A DNA stretch of 64,000 nucleotides from the IMG/VR virus record IMGVR_UViG_3300029548_000183. One strand, 5' to 3'. Shown here piece by piece: positions 1 to 59,786 of the stretch. Every line of letters begins with the position of its first letter. Positions within the stretch are counted from its first letter, which is position 1. The position numbers and the translations under genes are program-made. The notes under the pieces were generated by a model, which saw nothing but the letters and a program-made list of their open reading frames with translations, was not told the DNA's origin and did no database searches. The stretch is from a virus (Duplodnaviria > Heunggongvirae > Uroviricota > Caudoviricetes).

Positions 1-1
1 T

Positions 2-789: not shown

Positions 790-802
790 GGAGGAAAATA
801 CT

Positions 803-1819: not shown

Positions 1820-1947
1820 TCAACAGATTTGGTAAAAATAACACAAAGACAGAGCCCATAGATAAATGTATATGTGCCTTATGAAAATAAAAAGATAAGT
1901 AAAGAATCAATAAAAGATTTTTTTATGACTGCAAGGAGGAAATAAAA

Positions 1948-2170
1948 CGAGTCGACCAAATTGCCAGATTACGAATTAAGATATTGGGAAAAAGAAACTG
2001 ATGAATTATCTTTAGAAGTAGACAAAAATAATGATGTTCACCTATATTGGACAACTCCGATTTCAAATAAAGTGAAAGATAACGAAGCTAAATTAACTAA
2101 AACAACCATTAATCAGGTTTCTTTGCCGCAAACTCCTAACCCAGAAGTGGTTAATGAATCTTTCAAATAA
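1948..2170 (+). pseudogene. gene fragment carrying a duplicated ~70-bp module of ORF 355-789
   Basis: nt 1948-2017 almost identical to nt 693-762 (encodes ..TKLPDYELRYWEKETDELSL..). No ATG start; only a TTG at 1961, poorly spaced from the RBS. Confidence 0.3.
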
Positions 2171-2227
2171 AACATAAATAAAAATTGGAACTTAGTTCCG
2201 ATTTTACTATTAAAAGGAGGATTTGCA

Positions 2228-2736
2228 ATGGAATATGGAATAAGAAAATTAACTGTAACATTAGATCCTAAAGTGATAAAAAGCTTAGAAGAAAAAGAGA
2301 AAAAAATAAAATAAAAGAAGATGCTGTTATAGGGATTATGATAATCTTGATTTTAGGATTTGTAATAGTGAATGTTTTTCCAAGTACTAAAAAAGCAGAA
2401 TGTATTTTATGTATTGGACTTGTTGTTTTACCTGTAATAATAGCTACTAGCTGTAATCCAGAAAATACTGAACTATATATATTTTTAAGAGATATCAAAG
2501 CTGCTTTACAAAAATATGGATGGCTATATGTAGATGTAGTAGATAATACTATATTGGTTGAAGAAGACAGTAGAGATTATGACTATTGTGAAATTACATC
2601 CATTCCCGAATGGTGTGAAATTAATTATTGGGACAGTACAATTAACGAAATATCCGTTAAGATAGATAAGAAGAATAAAGTAAAAATATATTGGAATAAA
2701 CCAAAATCTGAAAAGTCTGTTATACTAGACCGTTAA
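2228..2736 (+). pseudogene. frameshifted paralog of ORF 355-789 (two frames joined across an A-run near 2297-2312)
   Basis: ATG 2228 with RBS AAAGGAGGA. Frame A encodes MEYGIRKL..KSLEEKEKKIK then a stop at 2312. The similarity to ORF 355 continues in frame +2 (..EKNKIKEDAVIGIMIILILGFVIV..) up to the stop at 2736. Confidence 0.4.
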
Positions 2737-2762
2737 TATGGAGCTCGGAAAGGAGGATTTAA

Positions 2763-3380
2763 ATGGAATGTGAAGAAAAACAATATATAAAAATATCAAA
2801 TAAAAGATTAATATTAAGGCTTGTAATTATGATAAGTATACTACTTGCTTTTGCTTATTATGTTTACACTAATTCAAATATTTTTAATACTAAGCTGGCG
2901 TACCAAACTATTTCCAGTTCAGACTTGTATGAAATTGGGAAAACAAAAGTGATTAAGGAAAGAGGTAAGACTCCTTTTTATAAGGTTGAAATTAAGAATT
3001 TTGGAAACGTGACATTACCTGAATCCACATATAACAAATATATTGGAAATAAGTACAACGCCATTAGAATTAATGAAGAAAAACTCAGTATATATATAGA
3101 CGAAAGCTATTTAATTGAAAGTTCTTTTTCAACATGTACAGAAAGAAGCGTTAAAAGAGTATCATATCCATGGGATGCAAAACAAGCTCAAAAATTTACT
3201 AATAAAGAAATAAAAGAAACAATCAGTATTATAAAAAAAATAGGGATTAATGAAGATAAATGGCATGATGCAAATTTGCCATATGAATACACTAATAAAT
3301 ATTGTATATATCGTGGTTATTTTAATGGCTATAATGTTAACAAAGATATTTCAAACGGAAAAATAATTAAGTGTGATTAA
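2763..3380 (+). CDS. hypothetical membrane-anchored protein
   Basis: RBS AGGAGGA 6 nt before ATG; N-terminal TM helix. Confidence 0.5.
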   Translation: MECEEKQYIKISNKRLILRLVIMISILLAFAYYVYTNSNIFNTKLAYQTISSSDLYEIGKTKVIKERGKTPFYKVEIKNFGNVTLPESTYNKYIGNKYNAIRINEEKLSIYIDESYLIESSFSTCTERSVKRVSYPWDAKQAQKFTNKEIKETISIIKKIGINEDKWHDANLPYEYTNKYCIYRGYFNGYNVNKDISNGKIIKCD

Positions 3381-3475
3381 GATACATAATTTTACACCGA
3401 AATCAATAGTGAAATTTTATTATAGTATAATATTAATAGATAAGAAAATTATTTAGTAAAAAGGAGGAAACAGGT

Positions 3476-3625
3476 ATGTTAATAGTAATTTTAGGATTTG
3501 TAATTGGGGTTATAATAGCAATTAAAGCTTTTAATTCTTTGTTTACAGGGGACCCCAATGCAAAAATGTACTGTATAATGATAGATATTTTAACGGGATG
3601 TCTGATTACAAAATGCTGTGACTGA
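3476..3625 (+). CDS. small hydrophobic peptide (49 aa)
   Basis: RBS AAAGGAGGAAA before ATG 3476; N-terminus ILGFVIGVIIA resembles the TM segment of ORF 2338. Confidence 0.3.
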   Translation: MLIVILGFVIGVIIAIKAFNSLFTGDPNAKMYCIMIDILTGCLITKCCD

Positions 3626-4241
3626 TAAAAGTAAGATAGATTGGGAATATTTAGAGAAATGTATTTCCGAATCAAAAGCACCTACCATTAATCTATCCGG
3701 TAGTGGTGATCCATTTTATAATTGGCAGGATAATATTGATTTTTATAATCACATATATGAATTAGCTACAAAATATGGAAAGAAATTAGATATACATACT
3801 CGTATTCTTCCTACAGATATGGATTTAATTAAAAAGTTCAGGAAAATTGCTTTAAGTATTGAGTCTTATGATGAAGAAGCAATGAAAAGACTACAGGCTA
3901 TGCTGCTGGAAATTACAAAGACTACTAAGGTAAGGGTAATTAATGTATTAAATGAGAGAATGACCACCGAGGATTGTCTTGATTACATAAACAAAATGCA
4001 TAGTATTGGTGTTGAGCAGATTACTTTTAGACAAATGTTTGGTAATAAAAATGCATATCAAAATTTCTTAAAAATCAAAGATACTATTAATATTCCAGGC
4101 GTCATGTTTTTGCCTGATGATGAATACCACAATTACTATTTTACAACTAATAACACACTTTATCCATATTTCTTTGGCTATACAGAACATGGAAAAAGAA
4201 ACGCAGGATATAAATTAAAAAGTTGGATGAAAGATTGTTAG
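3618..4241 (+). CDS. hypothetical protein. The SGSGDP segment is reminiscent of the GGE motif of radical-SAM activases, but no CxxxCxxC is present
   Basis: Long ORF with only a GTG start at 3618; the N-terminus may be truncated. Confidence 0.35.
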   Translation: MTDKSKIDWEYLEKCISESKAPTINLSGSGDPFYNWQDNIDFYNHIYELATKYGKKLDIHTRILPTDMDLIKKFRKIALSIESYDEEAMKRLQAMLLEITKTTKVRVINVLNERMTTEDCLDYINKMHSIGVEQITFRQMFGNKNAYQNFLKIKDTINIPGVMFLPDDEYHNYYFTTNNTLYPYFFGYTEHGKRNAGYKLKSWMKDC

Positions 4242-4253
4242 GAGATAAATTAT

Positions 4254-4775
4254 ATGACAAATTTTTATATAGCAGATACTCATTTTGGACACGATAATAT
4301 ACGAAGATTATCGCATAGACCATTTAACAGTATCGAAGAAATGGACAAAACAATTATTAATAATTGGAATAATAAAGTGAAACCAAGTGATGATGTTTAT
4401 ATTTTAGGAGACTTTACATACAAAGGTAAAGACTATAAACATTACCTAAAACAATTAAATGGTAAAAAGCATTTAATCATTGGGAATCACGATTCAAGAA
4501 CAGTAAGAGAAAGCAGAGGAACTAATGATTTTGTAGAAGTAAAACAAATGCTGGAAATTAATGATAATGGACACAGAATTGTGCTTTGTCATTATCCATT
4601 AGTTGAGTGGAACGGCTATTACAGAGGTACATATCATTTTTATGGACATGTACATAACAATTATCATAATGAAACCACCAGCTATGCTAAGGGTATGCAT
4701 AATGCATTTAATGTGGGAGTAGATGTAATTGGATTTACACCTTGCACATTCGATGAAATTGTAAATAAGAATTAA
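4254..4775 (+). CDS. calcineurin-like metallophosphoesterase
   Basis: Motifs DTHFGH, GDF, GNHD and GHVH in canonical order; RBS GGAGAT before ATG. Confidence 0.8.
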   Translation: MTNFYIADTHFGHDNIRRLSHRPFNSIEEMDKTIINNWNNKVKPSDDVYILGDFTYKGKDYKHYLKQLNGKKHLIIGNHDSRTVRESRGTNDFVEVKQMLEINDNGHRIVLCHYPLVEWNGYYRGTYHFYGHVHNNYHNETTSYAKGMHNAFNVGVDVIGFTPCTFDEIVNKN

Positions 4776-4796
4776 AAAAAATAATAAGGAGATTAT

Positions 4797-5570
4797 ATGC
4801 AAAAATTAAACAGATTCATACTAGAAAAATCGTATAACGATATAGAAATCAATATGATTAAAGAAAAATTAGATAAAAATTCATATATGTATGATTATTC
4901 CTTAATAGATAATGCAGATATTCCATCATTTGTTAAAAATGATACAGATATACCTGTGGGAAGCATACAGTTTGTAGAAAAATATTTAAATATAAAAGAA
5001 AATCCAATAGAACTACCTCCTTATTTAAGGACTGATGAATTTTTGAAAAGAGATTATAAATTTGTAACATGGGATAAAGTACCAAGACAGGGTATGTTTT
5101 TCCTTAAAGACGTTACTAATTTAAAGGAGTTCAGCAAAGTAGTAAATGCTGAATTTGAGGTAAATGATGAATTGTGGAATTATGAAAGAAAAAATGAGTT
5201 CGATAACACTTTAGTCTTAGATAAAAATGCAACTTATTTGGTTAGTAGCACATTTCCTATACTTTCTGAATATAGAGTGTATGTTTTTCAGGGAGAAATA
5301 GATACCATATCTTTATACAATGGTGATGCAACTGTATTGCCGGATATGGATTTAATAAAGAAAGCTGTTTACTTAATTAATAACAATGAAGAATATTTGG
5401 ATTCATATACCATAGATGTAATGGTAGGAAAAGAAGGCACAGCATTAATAGAAGTACATAATTTTACATCCTGTGGCTTGTATTCAACATTATGGGGTAA
5501 TAATCTGTTAACAGCATATAAAGATGGAATAAAATATCTAAAGAAAGATAATCATAAATTAGAAATTTAA
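4797..5570 (+). CDS. putative ATP-grasp-like enzyme
   Basis: RBS AAGGAGA before ATG. The C-terminal ..GTALIEVHNF.. segment resembles the ATP-grasp fold core; weak call. Confidence 0.35.
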   Translation: MQKLNRFILEKSYNDIEINMIKEKLDKNSYMYDYSLIDNADIPSFVKNDTDIPVGSIQFVEKYLNIKENPIELPPYLRTDEFLKRDYKFVTWDKVPRQGMFFLKDVTNLKEFSKVVNAEFEVNDELWNYERKNEFDNTLVLDKNATYLVSSTFPILSEYRVYVFQGEIDTISLYNGDATVLPDMDLIKKAVYLINNNEEYLDSYTIDVMVGKEGTALIEVHNFTSCGLYSTLWGNNLLTAYKDGIKYLKKDNHKLEI

Positions 5571-5586
5571 AAGTAAAAGGAGATAT

Positions 5587-5904
5587 ATGATGATACTTAC
5601 AATTAGATTTGTTGACACAACAGAATCAAAAAATCCTGCTGTACTTACTCTGTGTAACTTGGAAATCAAGACAAATGATGAGGAGACAGTTAAGGACTCA
5701 TATCAAAAATTAATACCTAAGGTACACAATCAAAACTTTTCCGGAAATGCAGCAATGCTGTTACAGGAAGTTACAACCTTGGTGATGTCAGAAAATCCTG
5801 ACATGGTTTTACTGTCAGTTAATGATGATCCAAAGAAGTGTAGCAAGACTCATTTTTTGGATGTTGAGTTAACAAGAAAAACAAATAATCCATATACATC
5901 TTAA
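5587..5904 (+). CDS. hypothetical protein
   Basis: RBS AAAGGAGAT before ATG. Confidence 0.45.
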   Translation: MMILTIRFVDTTESKNPAVLTLCNLEIKTNDEETVKDSYQKLIPKVHNQNFSGNAAMLLQEVTTLVMSENPDMVLLSVNDDPKKCSKTHFLDVELTRKTNNPYTS

Positions 5905-5925
5905 GAAAAGAAAGGAACGAGAAAA

Positions 5926-6135
5926 ATGCAAAAAGACAGCATGAAAGAATTGCAAAATGAAAGATTAAATACAAAGAAAAAAGAAATAGTTAGTAGGCAG
6001 AATGCATTGGAGATATATTGGCAGAACAACAAGGATAAGCCACTGGTTGAGAAAAATGCAATAAACGAACTGCTCATATTAATGCAATTAAAATCAGAGG
6101 TTGAAGAGTTGGAAAATTATTTGAAAATGTTGTAG
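5926..6135 (+). CDS. hypothetical coiled-coil protein
   Basis: RBS AAAGGAACGAG before ATG. Confidence 0.4.
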   Translation: MQKDSMKELQNERLNTKKKEIVSRQNALEIYWQNNKDKPLVEKNAINELLILMQLKSEVEELENYLKML

Positions 6136-6190
6136 AAAAAATTGAAAAAAATATAATAAAAGCAGAAACTCATCAAAAAAAGCATCAAAA

Positions 6191-6620
6191 ACACAGTTGC
6201 AAAAAATGGTGATTTTTGGCATTATGATATTATAATTGCAACAAGAGAGGAAATGTTCCACCAATCCGAATCACCACCCCGGATATTACTTTCTTCTCTT
6301 GTAAAAATACAAGAGGAAAAATAGTTAAAAAGTTAATTTTTCATTTAATAATTTCTTTCTTATAAATATATAAAACAGCTGCCGGTCCTCTTGGGCAGTT
6401 GGAACCGTGGAATCATTGTTTTGACAAACTTACATGACTCATCCCCCAATAAACGCTCTCATGTAAGTGCCGGCTCATCCCGGCTGATTCCAATAGACAA
6501 GGCAAAACTTGTCATGAGTGGCAGCAAAGAGACACTCCTTAACTCTTTGCAAACTCCTATTATTATTTAGACGAACGGATAAGAAAAAGATCATGGTAGC
6601 CACTCCCATGGTCTTTTTTA
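6191..6620 (+). ncRNA. candidate structured non-coding RNA (paralog of the 41617-42215 region)
   Basis: No ORF. Starts with the shared motif AAAAACACAGTTGCAAAAAAT. Shares blocks AAATACAAGAGGA, CCTCTTGGGCAGTTG..GAATCATTG and the hairpin module GTGCCGGCTCATCCCGGCTGATTCCA with 41745-42215. Confidence 0.3.
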
Positions 6621-6728
6621 TGTAAAAAAAAGGAATATTATTCTTCTTTTTTATCTCTTTTTTAAAAAAATCCATATTAAACATATAAAAATAAAAATTG
6701 GAGTTTAAACATGAAAGGAGATACAAAA

Positions 6729-7037
6729 ATGGTTAGATCAAGATATTTTAATGTGGGAGAGGTCTTCGTAACAAAAAGCATAAATGAATTAATTAAGTCA
6801 GACATGCCTTTTAACAAAGCCATTAACAGTGCTTTAACAAAATTTGTAAACAAGGACTGGGGTATTCTTTGTGATGAGGACAAAGCTCTTAATGATGAAG
6901 CTCTTAAACATCCTGATGATCTGTACATTCTTGCTGCATATGAAACACCAAAAGGTAAGGTATACATCATTACAAACAGAAAATCAGAAGAGCCTGGTGA
7001 CAATGTAACCACAATCTGTTTTCCTGATGAGAGATAA
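6729..7037 (+). CDS. hypothetical protein
   Basis: RBS AAAGGAGAT 8 nt before ATG 6729. Confidence 0.5.
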   Translation: MVRSRYFNVGEVFVTKSINELIKSDMPFNKAINSALTKFVNKDWGILCDEDKALNDEALKHPDDLYILAAYETPKGKVYIITNRKSEEPGDNVTTICFPDER

Positions 7038-7049
7038 GAATAAAAAATC

Positions 7050-7078
7050 AGAGTCACATCTTGTGGCTCTCTTTTTTA
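7050..7078 (+). terminator. intrinsic terminator (AGAGTCAC-loop-GTGGCTCT plus T-run family)
   Basis: 8-bp stem with one G-U pair followed by TCTTTTTT. Confidence 0.6.
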
Positions 7079-7094
7079 TGTATTAAAAAAAAAC

Positions 7095-7110
7095 AACCAT
7101 ATTATAAATG
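7095..7110 (+). promoter_or_regulatory. conserved promoter-proximal motif AACCATATTATAAATG
   Basis: One of more than 20 near-identical copies. Each lies 20-60 nt after a terminator and 20-70 nt before an RBS, always on the same strand as the downstream gene. Confidence 0.5.
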
Positions 7111-7150
7111 TATCTATTAATAACAGGAGCTTTAAGAAAGGAGAAAAGAG

Positions 7151-7393
7151 ATGGAAAAGTTCTATTTTACATTTGGAAGCAGTAGTCAGTTTCCATATCA
7201 TGGAGGTTATTTAATTGTAAAAGCAGATGACAGGAATGATGCCATTGAAAAATACAGAAAGAAATATCCTGATGTGAATGAAAATACTGTGAACTGTGCA
7301 TTCATCTATTCAGAAAAAGAATGGAACAATTTTTTGGAATGGTGTGAGTGTTTAAGCATTGGAAGAGAAACATGCCATGAGGTAATTGAATAA
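7151..7393 (+). CDS. hypothetical protein
   Basis: RBS AAAGGAGAAAAG before ATG. Confidence 0.5.
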   Translation: MEKFYFTFGSSSQFPYHGGYLIVKADDRNDAIEKYRKKYPDVNENTVNCAFIYSEKEWNNFLEWCECLSIGRETCHEVIE

Positions 7394-7411
7394 AAAAAGG
7401 AGAAAAAAGAA

Positions 7412-8344
7412 ATGGTAAATAGCATTATGTTTTTAATTGGAGCAGGTATTATTATTTTCACTCTTGTTAAAAGAATTATAAGCAAAGTTGGAACGGGCTA
7501 TAATGATGAAAAAAAGACAAAGGTTAAAATTACAGGATACATTGTGGGATTAATTGTGATTATTCTGTCATCAAGTTTTGTAATTATTCCTACGGGATAC
7601 ACTGGCATTAAAAAGACGTTTGGCCAGATAAGTAAAAATACATTACCTAATGGATTTAACTTTAAGGTGCCCGTTGTTCAGACAGTTGAAAAAATTAACA
7701 ACAAACAGCAGGACATATCATTTGAAGACACAACAATTTCGTCAGAAACCAGTGAACGAAATGAAGTATTCTTTTCAGGCATTACGGTAACATTCAGAAT
7801 TAACCCTGAAAAATCAGCATGGATTGCAGCCAACATAAGTGATTATGAAAGCAATCTGTTGAATGAAGGATTGATTGGCTCGGCAATTAAGTCTGCTGCA
7901 AAAACATTGACTCCTATCGATGTAACAAATCGTGGCAAGATTGAGCCAATAGCACAGGAAAACATTCAGAATTCCATTAATGACAAATATGGCAAGGATG
8001 TAATCTACATAAACAAGGTTGTCATTAACAATGCAACATTCGACAAGGAATACAATGAAAAGATTGCAAAGAAACAGCAGGCTCAGATGGATTATGAAAA
8101 ACAGCAGATAGAAAACAAGAAGGAAATTGAAAAGGCAAGTGCAGAAGCTCAGGTTAAGAAGACAAAGGCTGAGGCAGATGCGGAAGCCACAAAGATAGCT
8201 GCTGATGCTGAAGCAGAAGCCAATAAAAAGATTTCCAATTCCATTACTGACAAGATAATTAATAACAAACTAGCAGAAGCAAGAATCAAGCATGGCTGGG
8301 TAACTGTATCTGGCAGTGACACTGTTGTAACTAATAATAAATAA
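7412..8344 (+). CDS. SPFH/band-7 (prohibitin-like) membrane protein
   Basis: N-terminal TM. GYTGIKKTFGQ..PNGFNFKVPVVQTV matches the SPFH core; C-terminal Ala/Glu/Lys-rich coiled coil. Confidence 0.75.
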   Translation: MVNSIMFLIGAGIIIFTLVKRIISKVGTGYNDEKKTKVKITGYIVGLIVIILSSSFVIIPTGYTGIKKTFGQISKNTLPNGFNFKVPVVQTVEKINNKQQDISFEDTTISSETSERNEVFFSGITVTFRINPEKSAWIAANISDYESNLLNEGLIGSAIKSAAKTLTPIDVTNRGKIEPIAQENIQNSINDKYGKDVIYINKVVINNATFDKEYNEKIAKKQQAQMDYEKQQIENKKEIEKASAEAQVKKTKAEADAEATKIAADAEAEANKKISNSITDKIINNKLAEARIKHGWVTVSGSDTVVTNNK

Positions 8345-8480
8345 CATTCCAAAATAAAAGAGATTCACAATAATGGCTCTTTATTTTTATTTAGCTGCAT
8401 ACTTTTATTTCTTGTATAAAAAAATCCATATTATTATTGTAACAAAAAATAATAGGAGATTAAGAAAGGAAAATAAATTA

Positions 8481-9182
8481 ATGAATAATTTAACTAAAAA
8501 ACTAATATTATTCGATTGGGGAAATGTTTTACTAAACAGTAATTCAGAAAAATATACAATCTATGATGCTAGAAATGATATTGCACTAGATTTAAAGCCT
8601 CAAAATGTCGAAATATTTGAATCAATGTTTAATGATAAATCTTTTTGGACGTCTAGTGGAACTAATCTTTCTAGTGTTATAACAAAGTATCTAAAATCCT
8701 CTGGATGCAAATGTTCAGTAGATGATTTTAAAAATTGTTATTTAAAACATTATCGTAAAGTACCATGGTTTTTAGAAATGAAGAACTTAATAAAAAAGAT
8801 AGCAATAGATCAACGATTTTGTATTGGCATATTATCAACATTATGTGAAATGGATATGGAATTATTAAGAGAAAATTTACCTTTAGATAAATTTAATTAT
8901 CGATTTTTTTCATTTAATTTAGGCATTCAAAAACCAGATCCTCAAATTTATGAAATTGTAGAAACAGTTACAGGACACTATGGAGAAAATATACTTTTCA
9001 TTGACGATTTAAAAGAAAACATTAATGTTGCTAAATCAAGAGGATGGAAAACTTTATTATCAACAGGTTTTGATTATGAAAAAATAGCTATTAAATGCTT
9101 TTCCTTTATGGAAATGAATTATGAAGAAGAACAATTTTTTGAATCATTAGCTTATGATAACATAATGTCATTTTTTGGATAA
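8481..9182 (+). CDS. HAD-superfamily hydrolase-like protein
   Basis: LILFDWGNVLL (motif I-like) and ILFIDDLKENI (motif IV-like). RBS AGGAGA before ATG 8481. Confidence 0.45.
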   Translation: MNNLTKKLILFDWGNVLLNSNSEKYTIYDARNDIALDLKPQNVEIFESMFNDKSFWTSSGTNLSSVITKYLKSSGCKCSVDDFKNCYLKHYRKVPWFLEMKNLIKKIAIDQRFCIGILSTLCEMDMELLRENLPLDKFNYRFFSFNLGIQKPDPQIYEIVETVTGHYGENILFIDDLKENINVAKSRGWKTLLSTGFDYEKIAIKCFSFMEMNYEEEQFFESLAYDNIMSFFG

Positions 9183-9209
9183 CATTGTTTTTAAGAAGAT
9201 TTATAAATT

Positions 9210-9236
9210 AGAGTCACCCCGGTGGCTCTTTTTTTA
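9210..9236 (+). terminator. intrinsic terminator (AGAGTCAC family)
   Basis: AGAGTCACCCCGGTGGCTCT followed by TTTTTT. Confidence 0.6.
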
Positions 9237-9303
9237 TGTCATTGAAAAATGTAACCATATTATAAATGTAAACATTAATAATGGGAGATTGGAGTAAATT
9301 ATT

Positions 9304-9672
9304 ATGAATGAATTTTTAAAAATAAAAAACGAAATCATAAATAATGGGTGGACTGAAATTGAGGAAAGAACCACATTAGAAGGTTGGGGTGATGGAAAAA
9401 TTGGATATACCATTTGGATAAGACGTCCTGACTGGCATGGTAAGGATTCATTTTCATTAATAGGAAGAAATGTGGAACTATATGCATCGTGTAATGATGC
9501 ATCTAATCCGGATATGGTATTGAAAACCATTTCTAATTTAAGAAAACTGGCAAAAAGGGCTTGGGATGATTTTCCTGATGGTATTCCAGTTCAGAATGCT
9601 TTTGGAGAACTTGTGAAAGAAATCCTTTGCCATCCATTTGCAGAAGGGACAAACATAATAAAACAAAAATAG
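9304..9672 (+). CDS. hypothetical protein
   Basis: ATG with GGGAGATTGGAG upstream. Confidence 0.5.
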   Translation: MNEFLKIKNEIINNGWTEIEERTTLEGWGDGKIGYTIWIRRPDWHGKDSFSLIGRNVELYASCNDASNPDMVLKTISNLRKLAKRAWDDFPDGIPVQNAFGELVKEILCHPFAEGTNIIKQK

Positions 9673-9684
9673 GAGGAACTTAAA

Positions 9685-9912
9685 ATGAAAGATTACAACA
9701 AAGCTTATAAAAAAGGCAAGAAACTTTTGGAAGACATTGCAAGACAAAAAGGTTGGAAATATTATGACATTGTAGAGGACAGTTATACTTACCCTTATGG
9801 TTTACTTCTCATTGGCTATGAGGATGAAGCATCAATGAAGGGAATGGTAAGGGACATTAATGAAATTGGTCATGTCTGCATCAATCTTGATGGTTGTGAC
9901 AAACTGGTTTAA
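9685..9912 (+). CDS. hypothetical protein
   Basis: RBS TAGGAGGAA before ATG. Confidence 0.45.
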   Translation: MKDYNKAYKKGKKLLEDIARQKGWKYYDIVEDSYTYPYGLLLIGYEDEASMKGMVRDINEIGHVCINLDGCDKLV

Positions 9913-10285
9913 AAAATCATGATAGAAAGAAAAAATAATTATGGTATTGAAAATTCTTAAATAATTGTAATGAAAATCAGAGTCACCTAAGTGGTGGCTC
10001 TTTTTTAGGTTTGCTTTACAGTATACAAAAACATAAAAATAATTTCTTTAATAAAAGTTAAATTTTAGAAAAAAATCAAAAATTCTAAAAAGTTATAAAA
10101 AAAGGAATAATATTCATTTTAGAGAGCAAAATGTCAGAAATTTAACCATATTATAGTTGAATTAAAATGAAGAATTACTAATTTTGATTATAAAAATTTT
10201 AAATTCCCTAATTTACAGAATGCAAAAAAATATTAAATATGAAAAATGATAGTATTAACAAAAAATAGAAGGAGGAAAATAACTC

Positions 10286-10897
10286 ATGAAACAAAAAAAA
10301 GAAAAAAAGAAAATTTCAAAAGATGAAAAAATAAGTAATTTTATTGATGTTTTTGGAACACAAATAATTGTTGTTTTGGTATTACTATCCATATTTCTAA
10401 TATGTGCAATAGGATTAGCCGGAGATAAAATTTTTAATCATGGAAATTCAATTTTAGCTGATGATGGAAAATTTTTCACAATTAATTATTTCTTTGATGG
10501 TCTTGTTTATATTGCAGGAATCATGATGATTCTTGCCATTGTAGCACTGCTTGAAACAATTATTGTGACAACAACATCAAAAATACTTTTCTTAAGAAAG
10601 ATTAATAACAATCCTGTAACGGATGAAGAATTGGAAGCTCTTAATTTCAACACGGCAAAAGAATATCTTCAGTACATTGCTGAAAAAATAAACATAACCA
10701 CATCAGTTCTTCCTTTTGAATCAGAATTCATTGTCTGTGATTATAGTAAAAGAGTTATTTTAAAAGTGCTTAAAATATGTGAGAAAAAATTTAATGTCGA
10801 TTTAAAGTATGAATTGACATCTGGCTCAATTACATTATACCAAACATCAAAGAAAGAAAAATCAGAAGTATATGAAAGTGTTTCCATAGACGATTAG
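10286..10897 (+). CDS. hypothetical membrane protein
   Basis: RBS AGAAGGAGGAAA; three predicted TM segments. Confidence 0.5.
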   Translation: MKQKKEKKKISKDEKISNFIDVFGTQIIVVLVLLSIFLICAIGLAGDKIFNHGNSILADDGKFFTINYFFDGLVYIAGIMMILAIVALLETIIVTTTSKILFLRKINNNPVTDEELEALNFNTAKEYLQYIAEKINITTSVLPFESEFIVCDYSKRVILKVLKICEKKFNVDLKYELTSGSITLYQTSKKEKSEVYESVSIDD

Positions 10898-10942
10898 GTA
10901 ATTAAGAGTTTTGAAACAAATTATGAAATGAGAGGTGGAAAA

Positions 10943-11506
10943 ATGAACAGGAAGAACACAACAAAATTTCTTGGAAAATTATTGGAAGACGAAAAGTTTA
11001 CAGGACTGGGCAAGTATTGGGCAAAAGAAGTCAGTATTGATCCAATGTCAACAAAAGGAAAAAGAGTGGATTACATGCAATTTTCTCCAAAAGACCAGTG
11101 TTCTCCATCTTCCATCGAAAAAGGAATTTTTACATGCTATGAAATTAAGAGCTGCATTGATGATGTATACAGTGGTAATGGCCTTAATTTCCTTGGTGAA
11201 AAGAACTACATAGTTACAACTGTGGAATGCTACAAGCAGTTAATGTTGGACATAAAAAGTGGTAAATTCAGAGATTATGTTTTGAACAATTATCCTGATT
11301 CATCATTATACTTTGGCATTATGGTTGCAGTTCCAAAAAACTACTCCTTGGATGTCAAAAGTCAATTAAAAAGAGAGTTGGAAAATCCAACACCTTTGGA
11401 CAAACATGACAAATGGACACTTTCAGTTGCAATGTCCTGCAGAGAAGGACCAAGAAAACGTTCAATAACTGAATTGTTGTTTTGCATGCTACGAAGTGGA
11501 AAATAA
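10943..11506 (+). CDS. hypothetical protein; possible PD-(D/E)XK-like core (RVDYMQF..CYEIKS)
   Basis: RBS GAGGTGGAAA before ATG 10943; fold assignment is weak. Confidence 0.4.
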   Translation: MNRKNTTKFLGKLLEDEKFTGLGKYWAKEVSIDPMSTKGKRVDYMQFSPKDQCSPSSIEKGIFTCYEIKSCIDDVYSGNGLNFLGEKNYIVTTVECYKQLMLDIKSGKFRDYVLNNYPDSSLYFGIMVAVPKNYSLDVKSQLKRELENPTPLDKHDKWTLSVAMSCREGPRKRSITELLFCMLRSGK

Positions 11507-11518
11507 AGGAGGACTATT

Positions 11519-12013
11519 ATGGAAAGAAATTTTACAATAAAGCCAAGCAATAACCCTATAGAAGTAAAGGTAGAAACAAATAATATGGTGCCTGAATTAA
11601 CTAAAAGTTCAAATGTATATTCAAAGGTAGCTATGTATTGGGCAATAGCCTCACTTATCATTGTGCCTATAATAAATATTCTGTCAGGATTTATTAAGCC
11701 ATTAAGTGCAATATCCAATAAAATATTTTTAGGAACAATAATTTATGCAATTTTATCCTTCATTATTATAATGAAATTAGGACATAAGATGGCACCTTTA
11801 GGAATAGATCCAATAAATAGAATTAACAAATTACAAAAAGAACTAGAAAACAGTGAACAGTTCCCAGCAAATATTTTTAAAAAGTTTGATGCAAATGAAT
11901 TTAAAAATTGGGATAAAGACTATATTCTTATAAAAACAGAAATAGATGATAAAAAGAAAACCGTAAACATGAATGTATATGTCCCATATAATTCATTGGT
12001 ATTATTGCCTTAA
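11519..12013 (+). CDS. hypothetical membrane protein
   Basis: RBS AAAGGAGGA; two TM segments. Confidence 0.5.
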   Translation: MERNFTIKPSNNPIEVKVETNNMVPELTKSSNVYSKVAMYWAIASLIIVPIINILSGFIKPLSAISNKIFLGTIIYAILSFIIIMKLGHKMAPLGIDPINRINKLQKELENSEQFPANIFKKFDANEFKNWDKDYILIKTEIDDKKKTVNMNVYVPYNSLVLLP

Positions 12014-12354
12014 ATATAAAATAAAAAACAGGAGGTTTATAAAAGTCAACAACCCATCACTAAAGTAGTGTACTTGCAATAGCAAGTGGTTGATTAGCCT
12101 AAATACTTTGAGGACTACGTTACCATAGAATACATAGTCACCAGTGGATACTTCTCACGTCCACTGCTCTGAGAAGCCAAGTAAACATCTCTGAAGGGTA
12201 AGGAGAAGTCGGAGCCGTTAAAACCCATGGATAACATTGGCGATGAGAACCTACCACATTCATTTACTCATATATCTGGATGTGAGAGTGACATGGAGTG
12301 GATTTCCACTTCGATTGTCACATTTTAGTAACCGGAAGAAAGGAGAATTTTTGG

Positions 12355-12654
12355 ATGAATACTGAAGATATAGTAATTATAGTGTTTGTATCGTTATGGA
12401 TTATAGGGCTAATAACTGGGTACTTTTTGTACATAAAGAAAGAAACTAGTTCTTTCCGCATTAATAAGATGACATATGTTCTACCTAACCTTACATTTGC
12501 AATTTGTTTTGTATTTTGCAAGTTTATTATGAATTATGATTTAAAAGATTTTCTTCTGGAAGATGGAATTATGAGTTTAATTATATTTCTACTTTTATTT
12601 GACCCGGAGGAACAAAAAATAATTAATAACGAAATTAAGAGTCATATTTTTTGA
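12355..12654 (+). CDS. small membrane protein
   Basis: RBS GAAAGGAGAA before ATG 12355. Confidence 0.4.
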   Translation: MNTEDIVIIVFVSLWIIGLITGYFLYIKKETSSFRINKMTYVLPNLTFAICFVFCKFIMNYDLKDFLLEDGIMSLIIFLLLFDPEEQKIINNEIKSHIF

Positions 12655-12860
12655 ATATGGCTCTTTTTTTAAAAATTTCAACCATATTAGTATTGAAAAC
12701 ACAGTTGCAAAAAAATTAGTTTTTTTAATTTTGCTAAGATTAATTTGTAACTAAAGAAATTAAAACAACACAAAATGTTCAGCAGGAAACTGTAATTGTA
12801 AACGGTAAAACATAGTGGTTGGTTGACTAAAAGTAATAATGAAAAAGGATGGAAGTACAC

Positions 12861-13175
12861 ATGAAGAAGATAATGCTTATTTTATTGACCTTAATCTGCA
12901 TTACATTAAATTCATTTTTTGTATTTGCAGATGAATCCGTAACACAGAAATGTAGTACACAACAAAAAACACAGTCAGAAACCATAATCCTAAATGGTGA
13001 TACATATGTAAAACAGAATGAAAGTCATAGCCATAATCATGATGTGAATGAAAAATCAGAAAACATAAGTGAAGGTGAAAAGCAAAAGGAAATTTTAGAT
13101 TTGGAAGATATAGTTGCAGTTTGCATTATAGTCATTATAATACTGTTTTACTTTGTTCTTCTTTCCTTATGTTAA
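12861..13175 (+). CDS. small exported protein with C-terminal TM anchor (paralog of 13325-13672)
   Basis: Signal peptide ending VFADE, shared ETII(L/V)N(G/N)DTY block, C-terminal hydrophobic helix. Confidence 0.5.
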   Translation: MKKIMLILLTLICITLNSFFVFADESVTQKCSTQQKTQSETIILNGDTYVKQNESHSHNHDVNEKSENISEGEKQKEILDLEDIVAVCIIVIIILFYFVLLSLC

Positions 13176-13206
13176 CTTTTCCATAAAAAAAGAGAGGTGA
13201 CAAAGT

Positions 13207-13335
13207 ATGGCAAAAATTTGTCCAATTTCAAATGAAAAGGTTTTATATCTTGATTGCTTGGAGTGTGATGAAAAAATATGTAAAAGGGACTATGTAAAAA
13301 AAAATAAAGAAGAGGAGGAAAAAAATGAAGTTTAA
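13207..13335 (+). CDS. small Cys-rich peptide (42 aa; CP..C..C..C)
   Basis: RBS AGAGAGGTGA before ATG 13207; may be zinc-ribbon-like; no other support. Confidence 0.25.
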   Translation: MAKICPISNEKVLYLDCLECDEKICKRDYVKKNKEEEEKNEV

Positions 13336-13672: not shown

Positions 13673-13680
13673 AATCCTTA

Positions 13681-15651: not shown

Positions 15652-15779
15652 CACCATTATTAATTGAAAAAAGAAGTTTTTTATTTACAAATACTTTTAT
15701 TCAAAAATATAAAAATAAGAGCAACCATATTATAAATGGAACAATAACACTTAGTTTTTAACGAAAGAGAGGTAATAAC

Positions 15780-16664: not shown

Positions 16665-16720
16665 TGAAAAAACATTGAAAAAAGGAATAATATTTCTTTT
16701 TTTTATCTATATTCAAAACA

Positions 16721-16736
16721 TAACCATATTAAATAT
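16721..16736 (+). promoter_or_regulatory. conserved promoter-proximal motif (AACCATATTAAATATG variant)
   Basis: Part of a ~80-bp promoter/5'UTR module nearly identical to 28703-28780. Confidence 0.5.
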
Positions 16737-16778
16737 GAAACAAATTAATAATTGGAGTTAAATGAAAGGAGAAAAAGT

Positions 16779-17590: not shown

Positions 17591-17618
17591 AGAGTCACAA
17601 ATAGTGGCTCTTTTTTTA
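17591..17618 (+). terminator. intrinsic terminator (AGAGTCAC family)
   Basis: AGAGTCACAAATAGTGGCTCT followed by TTTTTTT. Confidence 0.6.
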
Positions 17619-26443: not shown

Positions 26444-26523
26444 TAAAAAACGAGAAAAGTTTTAAAAAAAAGAGTCATTTTATGGCTCTTTTTTTAAATT
26501 AAAAAGCAACCATATTATAAAAG

Positions 26524-26790: not shown

Positions 26791-26971
26791 CAAAAAACAT
26801 TATAAAAAACGATTCAAAAAGGAACATTATTCCTTTTTGAAAATAAAAATATTATAAAAATTAAAAAATAAGAGTCAAAAATGGCTTTTTTTTTTATTTC
26901 ATAAAAATTTTTTTACATATTAAAAATGTAACATAAAAAAATAATAGGAGCTAAGAAAAGGAGAAAAAAGT

Positions 26972-28218: not shown

Positions 28219-28290
28219 ACAAAATAAATTAAAAGAGTCACACTGGTGACTCTTTTTTTAACATTTTAAAAAAAAGCAACCATTTTATAA

Positions 28291-28668
28291 TTGCAATTGC
28301 AAGAGGAAAAGGAGAAATGTAATATTATAAAAACAATATGTATTAATGTAAAAGATACAATTAATAGTCCATCTGCATTAACAAGAGAACAAGGGAGAAT
28401 CATTCATAAAATCATAAAAGAAAAGATACTAGGCGGCTATAAAGTTGAACTTGATTTTCAAGATGTGGAAAGTTTAATAATACTATTTTTAAATGTAGCC
28501 ATTGGAAAATTATATGAACATTTTTCGAGTGAAGATTTACAAGAAAGATTAAAAGTAATAAATATCCCACAAGGAAAATCATTATATTTCAATATTGTCA
28601 TTGAAAATGCAAAAAAATGTTATTTTATCCCCAAAACTGTTATCCCCAATAATAAAGAATGCAGTTGA
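28291..28668 (+). CDS. hypothetical protein (no in-frame ATG; TTG 28291 or ATT 28324 as start)
   Basis: 125-codon frame without Met. RBS GGAGAAA 6 nt before ATT 28324. Confidence 0.35.
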   Translation: MQLQEEKEKCNIIKTICINVKDTINSPSALTREQGRIIHKIIKEKILGGYKVELDFQDVESLIILFLNVAIGKLYEHFSSEDLQERLKVINIPQGKSLYFNIVIENAKKCYFIPKTVIPNNKECS

Positions 28669-28723: not shown

Positions 28724-28739
28724 AACCATATTAAATATG
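28724..28739 (+). promoter_or_regulatory. conserved promoter-proximal motif (AACCATATTAAATATG variant)
   Basis: Within the duplicated promoter/UTR module. Confidence 0.5.
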
Positions 28740-29850: not shown

Positions 29851-29880
29851 AGAGTCACAATTTAGTGGCTCTTTTTTTTT
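29851..29880 (+). terminator. intrinsic terminator (AGAGTCAC family)
   Basis: AGAGTCACAATTTAGTGGCTCT followed by a T9 run. Confidence 0.6.
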
Positions 29881-29975
29881 AGCAAAAAAAATGAATATTA
29901 TTCCTTTTTTTATTTAATTATGACTTTAATCCCATATTTTTTGTGTAATCAAAACATTAATAGGAGGTATTTTTT

Positions 29976-30740: not shown

Positions 30741-31249
30741 AAAATAATGAAAATTAGAAGTCACAATGTGGCTTCTTTTTTTTGCTCAAAAAAAAAGAAG
30801 GCAATGCCCATATTAAGGAAAAGGAAAACAAAATAAACAAAAAATAAAAATATGAAAGGAAATTCAAGAAAAATGCAAGAAGAAAAATCAAACAAAAAGA
30901 AACAAAGGAAACAAAAAAAATTAAAATCATAGACGTATTAATGTTTGGCTTCGCTTATTCGATGGTTGCTGTCTGCTTATTTATTTTATTTATTCTTTTT
31001 TTTTCTATAAAAAATGCTCAAAAACACAGAATGCAAAAATTTTAAAAAAATCAAAAAAAGTAAAGTAGACATATCAGGTTTTCGAAATCTGAAAAACATC
31101 AAAAAAGCATTAATAAAAAATTAATAAAAAAGAAAGGGCATGGCTAATGAGAAAAAACATAAAAAACAGGGGTCACCCATCCCCCCTGACAAAAAGATGA
31201 AGATTATTTGTGTACATTGAAAATTTAAACAAGGAGGAAAGCCTTTCAA

Positions 31250-32828: not shown

Positions 32829-32921
32829 TGTAAAAAAACATAAAAGACATACCAACAACCATATTAATATAAAAGGAAAAATTTATTTTTTTTCAATAAA
32901 ATGTAGAAAGGAGAAGAAAAT

Positions 32922-33391: not shown

Positions 33392-33407
33392 AACCATATT
33401 ATAAATG
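33392..33407 (+). promoter_or_regulatory. conserved promoter-proximal motif AACCATATTATAAATG
   Basis: Followed at 33427 by AAAAACACAGTTGCAAAAAAT and a hairpin-rich leader before infC. Confidence 0.5.
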
Positions 33408-34866: not shown

Positions 34867-34951
34867 AAATATTTGGAAAATAAGAGTGTACTTTTGTGTA
34901 TACTCTTATTTTTTTGTCATTAACACCCATTTTATAAATGGAGGTGATTTT

Positions 34952-35596: not shown

Positions 35597-35612
35597 AACC
35601 ATATTAGATATG
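35597..35612 (+). promoter_or_regulatory. conserved promoter-proximal motif (AACCATATTAGATATG variant) upstream of the cas12a-like gene
   Basis: Same cassette motif as elsewhere. Confidence 0.45.
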
Positions 35613-39502: not shown

Positions 39503-39628
39503 ATATTCCGTAAGCTTGTAAAATCATGAAAAGAAAAAATTATTCAAAAACTAAATAGAGTCAGTTAATCTGGCTCTTTTCTTTTTGTAGAATGCAAAAA
39601 TTGAGATAACAAACAAAATGGTATAATA

Positions 39629-39726: not shown

Positions 39727-39833
39727 ATAATAAGTAAAAATTGGAGTCAAAAGTAGACTCCTTTTTTTGTACAAAAATAAACAAGGAAACAACCATATTA
39801 AGTATAAGAAAACAATGAAAGAAGGAAGAAAAG

Positions 39834-40691: not shown

Positions 40692-40786
40692 TAAAAAAAA
40701 ATTGTAAAAAATACAAGAAATTTTATTTTCATAAAATTTTCAACCATATTAGTAATGAAACAAATGATAATAGGAGGATTAATTTT

Positions 40787-41497: not shown

Positions 41498-41616
41498 AAA
41501 TCATTAAAGAGTCTCAAAAATTTTAAAGTGTATGGGCAACCATATTATGAATACAGAAAGATTTGAGGCTTTTTATATTAAAGAAAATAAAAAACTGGTC
41601 AAAAAAAAAGCCAAAA

Positions 41617-42295: not shown

Positions 42296-42504
42296 TTAAA
42301 AAAGGAATATTATTCCTTTTTTTTTGCTCTTTTTCTCTGATTAAACAAAAAAGAGTATACAGCCATATTATAAGTGAAGGGCAAAAAGTCCTTCTTCTAA
42401 GTATTACAAATTTTAAATTCAAAAGAAAGGAGGATCAGGGATTAAACTGAATATCAATATTCTACCCATCTGTTATTCTCACAGATGGGTCCCTGTTTTT
42501 ACGA

Positions 42505-45350: not shown

Positions 45351-45401
45351 TGTGCCAACAACCATATTACAGGTATGAAACAAAAGAAAGGGGGAAGACT
45401 T

Positions 45402-46204: not shown

Positions 46205-46426
46205 TTGCAAAAATGCAGAAATAATTGCAAAAAAAAGGGGCTGTAAGTTTACAGCTCTTTTTTTAACATAAAAAACAAGGCAATAACCATATTAAAAAAG
46301 AAGAAAATTGAAAGGAGGAAAAATATTATGCAGACAAAAGATGCAGAAATTAGAAGAATAGAAAATTTCTTTAAAAAAGATAAGAAAAATAAAAAAAAGA
46401 AAAAGTAGTGGAAAGGAAGTACTAAA

Positions 46427-49420: not shown

Positions 49421-49448
49421 AGAGTCACTCAGGTGGCTCTTTTTTTTG
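49421..49448 (+). terminator. intrinsic terminator (AGAGTCAC family)
   Basis: AGAGTCACTCAGGTGGCTCT followed by a T8 run. Confidence 0.6.
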
Positions 49449-53062: not shown

Positions 53063-53095
53063 AGAGTCACATTTAGTGGCTCTAATTTTTTTGAA
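53063..53095 (+). terminator. intrinsic terminator (AGAGTCAC family)
   Basis: AGAGTCACATTTAGTGGCTCT followed by AATTTTTTT. Confidence 0.55.
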
Positions 53096-53449
53096 AAATA
53101 AAAAAGAAAAAAGCAAGGCAATGACCATATTATGAATGAAAGAAAACATAAACAAATGCAACAACCATATTATGTATAAAACAAAATAAAAAAGAATTTC
53201 AAAAATTACAGTATGCAAAAAAATAGGATTTTTCAGTTTTTGATATACTTTTGCTAAATAAAAAAGAGCCAAATGCATTGCAAGTGGCTCCTACCTGTGA
53301 ATGAACATTTTGTAGTCATAATATGTCCATTCAAAGTGTATCAAAAGTAGAAAGAAAAATCAATAATAATAGAAAGGAACTAAAAAAAATTATGGAAAGA
53401 AAAGAATTAGAAATAGAATTAGAAAAAAAAGAACAAAATCATTAATGAT

Positions 53450-54059: not shown

Positions 54060-54111
54060 CAAGTAAATCAAAAAAAGGAATATTATTCCTTTTTTATCAA
54101 AAAAGAATTAA

Positions 54112-54137
54112 AGAGTCACAGCAGTGGCTCTTTTTTA
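54112..54137 (+). terminator. intrinsic terminator (AGAGTCAC family)
   Basis: AGAGTCACAGCAGTGGCTCT followed by TTTTTT. A second terminator family member (AAAGGAATATTATTCCTTTTTT) lies at 54072-54099. Confidence 0.6.
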
Positions 54138-54200
54138 AAAAACAAAGATAGCAACCATATTATAATAGGAAGAAACTCAAAAAATGAAAGGAGAATATTT

Positions 54201-56412: not shown

Positions 56413-56530
56413 AATTTGTGTGGACTCAGTTGTATTGAAGTGTTTAATTGTTCGTCCAACTCCAATAATTAATCTTTACATTCTTAATATGGAAGAATTT
56501 AAAAATGAAATTAAAAATAAAAGAGAGTCC

Positions 56531-56818: not shown

Positions 56819-57311
56819 ATTTTCTCCATTTCTCCTGCAATAAAAACAGGGCACCTGCACCGAAAGAATGTATGCATCTCCGATGATTTATCCTTATATT
56901 TTTAATATGGATGAATATGCAAATGTAAATTTATGATTGATTTTGTTTTATAAATATAATTCCTGTTTTGCATACTGTAAAATGAAAGGAGTTATGGGTA
57001 ACACATAATATTTTTTATGTGTAGGAAAGGATTATTAATTCTAATGAAACAAAGTAAAAATAGGAAATTTAGAAAATAAAAAGAAGATGCAGTACACTGA
57101 CTACATCTTCTTTCTTTAGTAAATGAAATCACCGAAAGAGTACAATAAAGACTCTATCATTGATTTCTCCTCCTGAAATTGTAAAAAAAGATTCGATAAC
57201 GCATGTAAAACATGTCAAATATAACTACCATTATATTCCTCGCTTACGGGATATCTCATCAATTTCATTATAAAAGTACATTATCTTATTGTCAATCATC
57301 TTTACATAAAA

Positions 57312-59706: not shown

Positions 59707-59786
59707 CCTTTTTTCCTGTAAAAAATTTCAAAAGGAGCAAGCAGCCATATTAGTGATGGAACTAAATAGAAAGGAGAGATTTTGTT

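Follow-up and report, generated by a model that had tools for sequence, protein, structure and literature searches.

Background

Composite modules of a stem-loop, an early promoter and a Shine-Dalgarno (SD) sequence, with G-T pairs in their stems, are known from T4-type phages as promoter early stem-loops (PeSLs); dozens of copies precede genes that are mostly ORFans, concentrated in hyperplastic regions, and they bring about indels and mini-circles (Arbiol et al., 2010, PMC2839356; Comeau et al., 2014, PMC4122927). Here we describe a family of intergenic junctions in a 64-kb stretch of DNA (the window, 64,000 nt of IMG/VR record IMGVR_UViG_3300029548_000183), which is probably part of a prevalent, conjugative-type megaplasmid of a Gram-positive human-gut bacterium. 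The PeSL is their closest known analogue, and no plasmid analogue of PeSLs was found in the searchable literature. We hold with reasonable, though not high, confidence that the junctions are a PeSL-like family of terminator, promoter and SD leader, that their promoters form a class without a -35 element built on the box CCATATTA, and that they serve as preferred joints for the gain and loss of gene cassettes.

Among promoters that do without a -35, the extended -10 promoter reads TGnTATAAT, and the T4 late promoter, TATAAATA, is read by gp55. The -10 boxes of Bacillus subtilis sporulation sigma factors are CATnnTA (sigma-G), CATAnnnTA (sigma-K) and CATAcanT (sigma-E).

Hairpins at the ends of genes

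An earlier note, made from the sequence of this DNA alone, had listed copies of two hairpin families, A and B, and of a 16-nt motif. All 15 family-A, 7 family-B and 24 motif sites were recovered within ±4 nt, far above chance. The family-A hairpin, AGAGTCAC-N3-9-GTGGCTCT, showed nine exact matches against zero expected, and relaxed matching returned the 15 listed copies together with two more (8361 and 39557). All 17 lay on the plus strand with a T-run after the stem. The hairpins were 19-27 nt long and stood a few to a few tens of nucleotides 3' of stop codons, with 5-8 T among the next 9 nt. Their features were those of intrinsic terminators, namely a stable stem-loop followed by a U-run, 3' of a stop codon and on the coding strand. 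The top five terminator-like matches in positions 1-20000 were all family A. The family-B palindrome, AAAGGAATATTATTCC, folded weakly (−1 to −12 kcal/mol). Rfam, in gathering and E-value modes, gave no match at the junctions.

Mean folding energy was −9.9 kcal/mol for the sense RNA and −6.1 kcal/mol for the antisense RNA (−10.6 and −6.1 kcal/mol for the hairpin at 7050). The hairpin is stronger in sense because a U·G wobble, kept in 14 of 16 copies, corresponds to a C·A mismatch on the opposite strand. Differences at the top of the stem were compensatory (CAT/ATG, CAG/CTG). Purifying selection was seen among close relatives, where 2 of 194 stem positions varied, against 9 of 59 loop positions and an intergenic background of 3.8%; these are closely related plasmid copies, and kin sequences of this kind are not independent. 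The conserved pairing, free loops and sense-biased folding argue for selection on the RNA hairpin, as for a unidirectional intrinsic terminator, and we take the family hairpins to be putative one-directional terminators.

A GAGTC…G(G/A)CTC stem was present in ~77 of 137 distinct terminator-like hairpins (~56%) across all family loci. One stem sequence is therefore dominant among them, which points to one terminator module that has spread widely. The 5' arm of family A also holds GAGTC, a GANTC site, and several orphan DNA methyltransferases are encoded on the same element.

A conserved box upstream of genes

The sequence AACCATATTA occurred 18 times exactly, always on the plus strand, and 40 times with up to one mismatch (13.5 expected). 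The 16-mer motif with up to three mismatches was found 24 times, against 4.4 expected. A position weight matrix (PWM) scan at a score of at least 14 gave 27 sites on the plus strand and two on the minus strand, with a null of 0.45 per strand, and added the sites at 6670, 8424 and 34925 to those already listed. The reverse-complement copies reported before minus-strand genes were confirmed (Table 1). They stand 5' of genes starting at 56860 and 56412, and with the 27 plus-strand sites they bear out the statement that motif orientation is tied to the downstream gene.

Conservation was limited to CCATATTA, a weaker TG 4 nt further on and an A beyond, both in 25 aligned copies from the window and in 90 non-redundant ones from all loci. 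The core had earlier been given as TATTATAAAT, whose TAAAT part proved variable; 5' of the box the sequence was A/T-rich and not conserved. Among close relatives the 8-nt box had no variable site in 152, where ~5.8 would be expected at the intergenic 3.8% (binomial P≈0.003, indicative only, as the sequences are non-independent).

The box usually lay 37-46 nt 3' of the terminator stem, and the 20-25 nt between T-run and box were not conserved. For 16 of 25 copies the distance from box to start codon was 27-65 nt. The SD began 15-19 nt after the motif start in several junctions (34925; family junctions AACCATATTAtaagagaaaGGAG…ATG), with an overall motif-to-SD range of 15 to >120 nt. The terminator-like and promoter-like appearance described earlier was thus borne out by the T-runs after stop codons, the sense-biased folding and the position of the motif before starts. 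The expected order, a hairpin followed within 60 nt by the motif, held for 12 of the 17 family-A hairpins and not for the rest.

Among the 65 plus-strand genes, the motif stood 5' of 26, a family hairpin of 19, and both of 15. The remaining genes were tightly coupled to the preceding gene (24) or had other upstream regions (15), and transcription units averaged ~2.5 genes. The claim that almost every gene is a separate cassette was too broad, with the motif at 40% of plus-strand genes.

A subfamily of leaders shares TGnAACAnnTAATAAyAGGAGnTTnAGAAAGGAGAAAA-ATG, with two SD-like GGAG blocks ~10 nt apart (7110-7150, 8440-8480, 9268-9303, 16737-16778, 28739-28780 and 40757-40786).

Two putative promoter classes on one element

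Promoters of the canonical type (TTGACA-like, 17 bp, TATAAT-like) with T at −12 preceded rep, parA, the IS605 tnpA and the gene at 58550, whereas position −12 of the CCATATTA class was invariably C. In 79 non-redundant CCATATTA junctions no -35 of sigma-A, E, F, G or K type was present at the proper spacing: the frequency of TTGnnn at spacers of 16-18 was 0.00, and sporulation-sigma -35 elements reached 0.00-0.03 at their expected spacers. Positions -15/-14 read AA, AG, AT or TC in nearly all copies, with a single TG variant, TGCCATATTA, in the relative L011. A generic sigma-70 consensus scan found 116 sites against 123 expected and was uninformative in such AT-rich DNA.

Because the box follows putative terminators, the downstream genes would need a new transcription start. 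The box is best read as a -10-region promoter element, not a -35, because the SD starts only 15-19 nt after the motif start. We propose the register C-13 C-12 A-11 T-10 A-9 T-8 T-7 A-6, with T/G at −1/+1, as it places the required A at −11 and T at −7. Since backbone genes have canonical promoters and cargo boxes have C at −12 and no -35, the cargo promoters would constitute a distinct -35-independent class, the second on the same element.

Other assignments of the motif were rejected. Read as a -35 (AACCAT-17-TAATAA), it would stand too close to the SD or ATG in several junctions. A sporulation-sigma promoter was dismissed on the absence of the cognate -35 at the proper spacing from the CAT-type -10, and a sigma-A/sigma-70 housekeeping promoter on the absence of a -35 at spacers 16-18 and on the C at −12. 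The motif had earlier been described as an (extended) -10 element; the -10 region agrees with the SD spacing, and the extension does not stand, with TG at -15/-14 only in the L011 variant.

A single dedicated sigma factor or regulator had also been suggested. The part of this that holds is the difference between the class and canonical promoters; the search for a sigma gene came up empty. Pfam gave no Sigma70_r2/r4 or RNA polymerase (RNAP) domain in ~50 window open reading frames (ORFs) or in 105 non-redundant ORFs of family loci, and its precomputed results gave none in the flanks, a search that covered ~150 kb of family sequence, with ~70-130 kb of the full plasmid outside it, and that divergent sigmas could escape. 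PHROGs, run on 10 ORFans, added no regulator. The element does have a LytTR response regulator and some helix-turn-helix proteins; nothing ties either to the box. A literature search for CCATATTA gave only unrelated matches. The reader of the box could be a host alternative sigma, sigma-A aided by a factor, or a plasmid factor, and we regard the host alternative sigma and the plasmid factor as equally likely.

A second conserved box, AAAAC(A/C)CA(G/C)TTGCAAAA, was found 24-25 bp 5' of (TGn)TATAAT-like -10 hexamers at 6188-6204, 12696-12712, 26529-26545, 33424-33440 and 41614-41630, with a variant, ACAGTATGCAAA, at 53208-53219, 58435-58446 and 56967-56978 (minus strand). It is present in the relatives L032, L043 and L059, and in three cases it lies just 3' of a CCATATTA box, giving tandem starts. 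It may mark an activator-dependent promoter class, as the 24-25 bp spacing is too long for a normal -35.

Junctions as endpoints of rearrangement

The junctions had been described as identical segments of ~60 bp, ideal for homologous recombination. This did not survive comparison: pairs of junctions were 40-73% identical, the median longest exact match shared by a pair was 11 nt, and 25 nt was reached by one pair only. The suggested comparison of cassettes among relatives was more fruitful, showing that junctions coincide with cassette boundaries and that some indel endpoints lie inside them.

The relatives L002, L003 and L021 are without window positions 6722-16677, the crossover lying in a 96-bp pair of similar junctions; their hybrid junction follows the left copy as far as the SD (ATGAAAGGAGA) and the right copy from there on. 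L004 is without 7080-17582 and switches within the GTGGCTCT arm of the hairpins at 7050 and 17591, and L022 is without 9309-9668 and switches in the leader/SD. In these three clear indels the crossovers fell within 8-21 bp microhomologies inside the modules. One cassette is shared with plasmids whose Rep is 92% identical, and there homology ends at the promoter box (position 16724).

Nine of 42 distinct breakpoints were strictly inside junction features, which make up 3.9% of the window, and 18 were within ±60 bp of one, against ~11% expected (estimated from 60 features x 120 bp). The junctions would thus be preferred, not exclusive, joints for the gain and loss of blocks, a preference that may come from the short stretches (stem arms, motif, SD) that junctions have in common. 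The shortness of these stretches suggests microhomology-type events rather than classical homologous recombination.

A breakpoint at 26547 was rejected as a junction crossover, since it joins a truncated dUTPase to a promoter box. Positions 26548-26790 are a 3' dUTPase remnant (C-terminal 80 aa, ...RGGFGSTG*) fused to promoter and box; an intact 142-aa dUTPase gene is present in L002, L011-L015 and L057.

The exact composite of hairpin and motif occurred in 35 metagenome loci, about half of them without other homology to the window. In plasmids with a 58% identical Rep, the core (as TCCCATATTA or AGCCATATTA) and the exact AGAGTCAC..GTGGCTCT hairpin were present at separate positions, not adjacent. 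None of 185,579 species-representative genomes (GTDB) contained the composite. IMG/VR gave no composite match, and only single chance matches to the 16-mer, and blastn with a 116-bp junction gave no significant match.

Proposed arrangement and alternative explanations

We propose that the co-oriented accessory region is punctuated by a three-part junction. A Rho-independent terminator, mostly with the GAGTC...G(G/A)CTC stem and strong only in sense through its U.G wobble, would end the preceding unit. Some 20-25 A/T-rich nucleotides on, a -35-independent promoter with CCATATTA as its -10 region would restart transcription for the following unit, from a start ~7 nt 3' of the box that is often the G of the semi-conserved TG, and a short leader with a strong SD would complete the junction. 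One promoter class would in this way drive ~27-29 units in 64 kb, among them cas12a, methyltransferases, SPFH proteins, a homologue of translation initiation factor IF3 and many ORFans. The same junctions may double as endpoints for deletion, insertion and replacement of blocks by short-homology recombination, which would give the mosaic cassettes seen in relatives.

Several points weigh against this arrangement. The polymorphism test of the box relies on related, non-independent sequences. The TG at motif positions 14/15 is polymorphic in close relatives (4/38), which weakens the assignment of the transcription start. The motif has neither the T at −12 nor the TG extension expected of a sigma-A promoter that lacks a -35, and no factor recognising CCATATTA was found in the searched ORFs. 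Over half of the 42 breakpoints lie away from junction features, and the exact matches between junctions fall short of what classical RecA recombination needs. The motif could also be a common promoter type of the host.

That last point leads to an explanation that we consider possible but doubtful, in which the box is an ordinary host promoter type, either a sigma-A variant or the target of an alternative sigma, and its repetition reflects selection for expression together with copy-paste spread. The L011 variant with TG at -15/-14 fits the extended -10 register, the -10 half is similar to the CAT-type boxes that sporulation sigmas have at -10, and no plasmid sigma was found in the searched ORFs. 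However, rep, parA and the insertion sequence (IS) on the same DNA use canonical TTGACA/TATAAT promoters, the box has no -35 of any tested type, and the composite is missing from the species-representative genomes and from IMG/VR. A different explanation is that CCATATTA is read by a dedicated plasmid-encoded protein, be it a minimal sigma of the T4 gp55 type, a sigma-like protein or a non-canonical RNAP, so that the accessory genes form a plasmid-controlled regulon apart from host sigma-A. We judge such a reader unlikely. It would suit the two mutually exclusive promoter classes on one element (canonical in the backbone; C at −12 and no -35 in the cargo), the invariant core, the travel of the motif with the plasmid family over 58-100% Rep identity and the copies of the composite, found only on contigs of up to 76 kb with plasmid-type genes. 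A host alternative sigma accounts for the same facts, and neither the domain searches of window proteins, flanks and 105 further ORFs nor PHROGs on the ORFans produced a candidate. We attach a similarly low probability to the wider claim of a -35-independent promoter class, hitherto undescribed, that is defined by CCATATTA and read by a megaplasmid-family factor that has so far escaped recognition, whether a minimal sigma-like protein or another specificity subunit.

It is also conceivable, and in our judgement very improbable, that the box acts in read-through RNA as a processing site or translation signal, perhaps tied to the plasmid IF3, and is not a promoter. Its strict sense orientation 5' of the SD, the divergent IF3 encoded on the plasmid and the second block (TAATAAyAGGAG..AAAGGAG) common to many leaders would all fit. 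Against this, strong terminators precede the box and the 20-25 nt leading up to it are unconserved, so that no other promoter is available; its distance to the SD also varies widely, and no Rfam family matches. We give slightly less credence still to the idea that the hairpins serve primarily for recombination, in an integron-like cassette system worked by the neighbouring tyrosine recombinase, and not as terminators. The stem sequence is conserved while loops vary, the mismatch is conserved, the co-oriented cassettes end beside the recombinase gene, and several variant endpoints fall at hairpins. Yet every hairpin has a T-run and stands behind a stop codon, a GTTRRRY-type core is missing, the cassettes come with promoters of their own, and the crossover point varies by event (stem arm, SD or motif edge). 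The recombinase itself is generic and Xer-like, with the 44-bp inverted repeat at 17624-17667 as its likely site.

If the PeSL-like reading of the junctions is right, the PeSL principle, in which punctuation doubles as a gene-shuffling joint, would reach a large and widespread gut plasmid. The element would also carry a compact, strongly conserved promoter box outside the housekeeping consensus of its own backbone genes. The junctions would then offer a handle for predicting transcription units on an uncultured megaplasmid, for tracing the reader of the box and through it the host, and for explaining how plasmid variants in human populations exchange cargo (cas12a, methyltransferases, ORFans). 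Were a plasmid factor the reader, ~40% of the genes on a prevalent gut plasmid of ~220 kb would be one plasmid-controlled regulon, insulated block by block with one terminator family and with modules that double as cargo-shuffling joints. The finding of a dedicated recognition factor would raise interest in the junction family.

The element and its other features

The window, with a GC content of ~30%, matches a stretch of a 143-kb human-gut metagenome contig (ERZ28577282 scaffold_71) at 100% identity. Encoded in it are a Rep3-type initiator (Rep; 18985-20241, minus strand) beside 104-bp iteron-like repeats, ParA with GGTACC-type repeat arrays, and a tyrosine recombinase. Its cargo comprises Cas12a with short arrays, an IS200/IS605 element, several DNA methyltransferases, three SPFH proteins and an LPXTG-type SpaA/thioester adhesin, with a sortase just past the window end. 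Family loci encode a type IV secretion system (T4SS) coupling protein, PcfJ, a cell-wall hydrolase and actin-like partition proteins. Near-identical proteins occurred on hundreds of contigs, the longest of 213-270 kb, which together with the replication, partition and T4SS genes points to a prevalent and probably conjugative megaplasmid. No virion genes were seen on the element, and megablast against PLSDB and INPHARED gave no match. Rep is only ~25% identical to Reps of Clostridium, Butyrivibrio and Roseburia plasmids, and Rep peptides found nothing in GTDB species genomes. We found no description of this plasmid in the searchable literature.

Nine to ten of the 104-bp repeats adjoin rep and look like iterons (21265-22264). 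Arrays of GGTACCAAAGTACC-type repeats lie 5' of parA (23732-23842 and 24313-25172), the second of ~17 units and centromere-like in appearance. Contigs that were otherwise identical differed in repeat number by one unit (100 bp). Directly 5' of the tyrosine recombinase gene, at 17624-17667, is a perfect 44-bp inverted repeat, CCCCTATTAGTTCGTTAAAT-TGGT-ATTTAACGAACTAATAGGGG. It is likely a resolution or recombination site, and relatives with a 92% identical Rep keep a related version.

The IF3 homologue (33576-34070, plus strand) is divergent and full-length (IF3_N and IF3_C), with a 184-nt structured leader, and had no relatives at E<=1e-20 beyond copies on this plasmid family. The compact Cas12a (1179 aa, 35642-39181) lies behind a CCATATTA box. 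It is followed by two mini-arrays (39304-39449 and 39645-39726) with degenerate repeats ending ...ATGTCTnCnnnnnnGnAGAT; between the two arrays stand a family-A terminator and a promoter of the TATAAT type. No cas1, cas2 or cas4 gene was seen. A full-length HEARO/IscB omega-RNA match (93 bits) at 12045-12254 (plus strand) has no IscB-sized ORF 3' of it, the next ORF being of 118 aa, and the segment is relocated relative to its neighbours in L058. A tRNA-Met (CAT) gene at 42221-42296 is followed by a family-B palindrome. The IS200/IS605 element (TnpA and TnpB, 43586-45266) has a GC content above its surroundings; exact TnpB copies were found on 23 contigs, only at the same plasmid position, and L042 has an IS200/IS605 copy at another site, beside another family-A hairpin. 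A giant ORF of at least 2685 aa without a Pfam domain lies directly 5' of the window (L021/L022/L023, 1-7541).

Table 1. Positions of motif copies and family hairpins in the window.
Feature	Position	Strand	Remark
Motif AACCATATTATAAATG	7095..7110	+	PWM 24.8; ATG at 7151, 56 nt on
Motif variant ATCCATATTA	6670..6685	+	ATG at 6711, 41 nt on
Motif variant ATCCATATTA	8424..8439	+	ATG at 8481, 57 nt on
Motif, exact 16-mer	9253..9268	+	
Motif, long leader (142 nt)	10144..10159	+	
Motif, then AAAACACAGTTGCAAAA box	12680..12695	+	
Motif, exact 16-mer	15723..15738	+	
Motif; end of homology with 92%-Rep relatives (16724)	16722..16737	+	
Motif 5' of truncated dUTPase	26508..26523	+	
Motif variant AACCATTTTA	28278..28293	+	
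Motif 5' of YopX gene	28724..28739	+	
Motif	32857..32872	+	
Motif, exact 16-mer, 5' of IF3 homologue, long leader	33392..33407	+	
Motif variant ACCCATTTTA	34925..34940	+	SD 15 nt after motif start, constrains transcription start
Motif, cas12a 45 nt on	35597..35612	+	
Motif 5' of N6/N4 methyltransferase gene	39791..39806	+	
Motif	40742..40757	+	
Motif	41538..41553	+	
Motif variant AGCCATATTA	42361..42376	+	
Motif	45360..45375	+	ATG at 45402, 42 nt on
Motif	46285..46300	+	
Motif variant GACCATATTA, tandem with 53163	53123..53138	+	
Motif	53163..53178	+	
Motif	54153..54168	+	ATG at 54201, 48 nt on
Motif variant AGCCATATTA 5' of SpaA/TED adhesin gene	59743..59758	+	
Motif 5' of minus-strand gene 56531-56860	56897..56912	-	
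Motif TTCCATATTA 5' of minus-strand gene 55963-56412	56479..56494	-	
Family-A hairpin AGAGTCAC-loop-GTGGCTCT and T-run	7050..7070	+	13 nt after stop codon at 7037
Degenerate family-A hairpin	8361..8380	+	weak, -0.4 kcal/mol
Family-A hairpin	9210..9229	+	
Family-A hairpin	9979..10001	+	
Family-A hairpin, compensatory stem-top variant (..CAT/ATG..)	12638..12664	+	
Family-A hairpin, crossover point of L004 deletion variant	17591..17611	+	
Family-A hairpin, compensatory variant	26471..26489	+	
Degenerate family-A hairpin	26871..26889	+	-6.1 kcal/mol
Family-A hairpin, only window copy without T.G wobble	28234..28253	+	
Family-A hairpin, homology boundary in L057	28678..28699	+	
Family-A hairpin	29851..29872	+	
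Family-A variant AGAAGTCAC..GTGGCTTCT	30756..30776	+	
Family-A hairpin, compensatory CAG/CTG variant, within CRISPR region	39557..39577	+	
Family-A hairpin, homology boundary in L042-L045	45322..45343	+	
Family-A hairpin	49421..49440	+	
Family-A hairpin	53063..53083	+	
Family-A hairpin	54112..54131	+	
Family-B palindromic A-run/hairpin/T-run, left copy of 96-bp repeat (L002/L003/L021 indel)	6629..6650	.	
Family-B palindrome, weak	10098..10119	.	
Family-B palindrome, right copy of 96-bp repeat (L002/L003/L021 indel)	16681..16702	.	
Family-B palindrome	26818..26839	.	-12.4 kcal/mol
Family-B palindrome	29889..29910	.	
Family-B palindrome directly after tRNA-Met	42301..42322	.	
Family-B palindrome, L047 breakpoint	54074..54095	.	

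Comparison with known systems

The junctions share with integron cassettes a co-oriented array of small cassettes, hairpin-forming repeats and an adjacent tyrosine recombinase gene. They differ from attC sites in being short terminators with T-runs, in having no attC core and no fixed crossover point, and in serving cassettes with their own promoters. The -10 half starts CAT(A), as in the -10 boxes of sporulation sigmas; however, the -35 of those promoters is absent at proper spacing, and a cargo of cas12a and methylases gives no cause for sporulation control. Like extended -10 and T4 late promoters, the junctions have one conserved 8-10 bp box at -10, no conserved -35 and A/T-rich sequence upstream. 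The box itself, CCATATTA, has C at -12 and no TG at -15/-14, and the searched plasmid ORFs yielded no sigma gene, gp55-like or other.

The hairpins resemble Rho-independent terminators in their GC-containing stem of 8-9 bp, loop of 3-7 nt, U-run, post-stop position and co-orientation. The share of a single stem family (~56% of 137 hairpins) is a uniformity unusual for ordinary intrinsic terminators.

Compared with PeSLs, the junctions belong to a plasmid (Rep3, ParA, iterons, tyrosine recombinase) and not to a T4-type myovirus. The hairpin lies 5' of the promoter, whereas that of a PeSL overlaps it, and in place of the host sigma-70 consensus promoter of PeSLs there is no -35 at any spacing and a C for T at −12. 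The plasmid junctions are known here from sequence, while the mini-circles of PeSLs were shown in phages. The likeness lies in the construction and setting of the modules: terminator, promoter and SD in many copies, with both hairpin and motif in 15 window junctions; stems with G-T pairs; variable-region ORFans downstream, most without a Pfam match; and indel endpoints between close relatives that fall within the modules.

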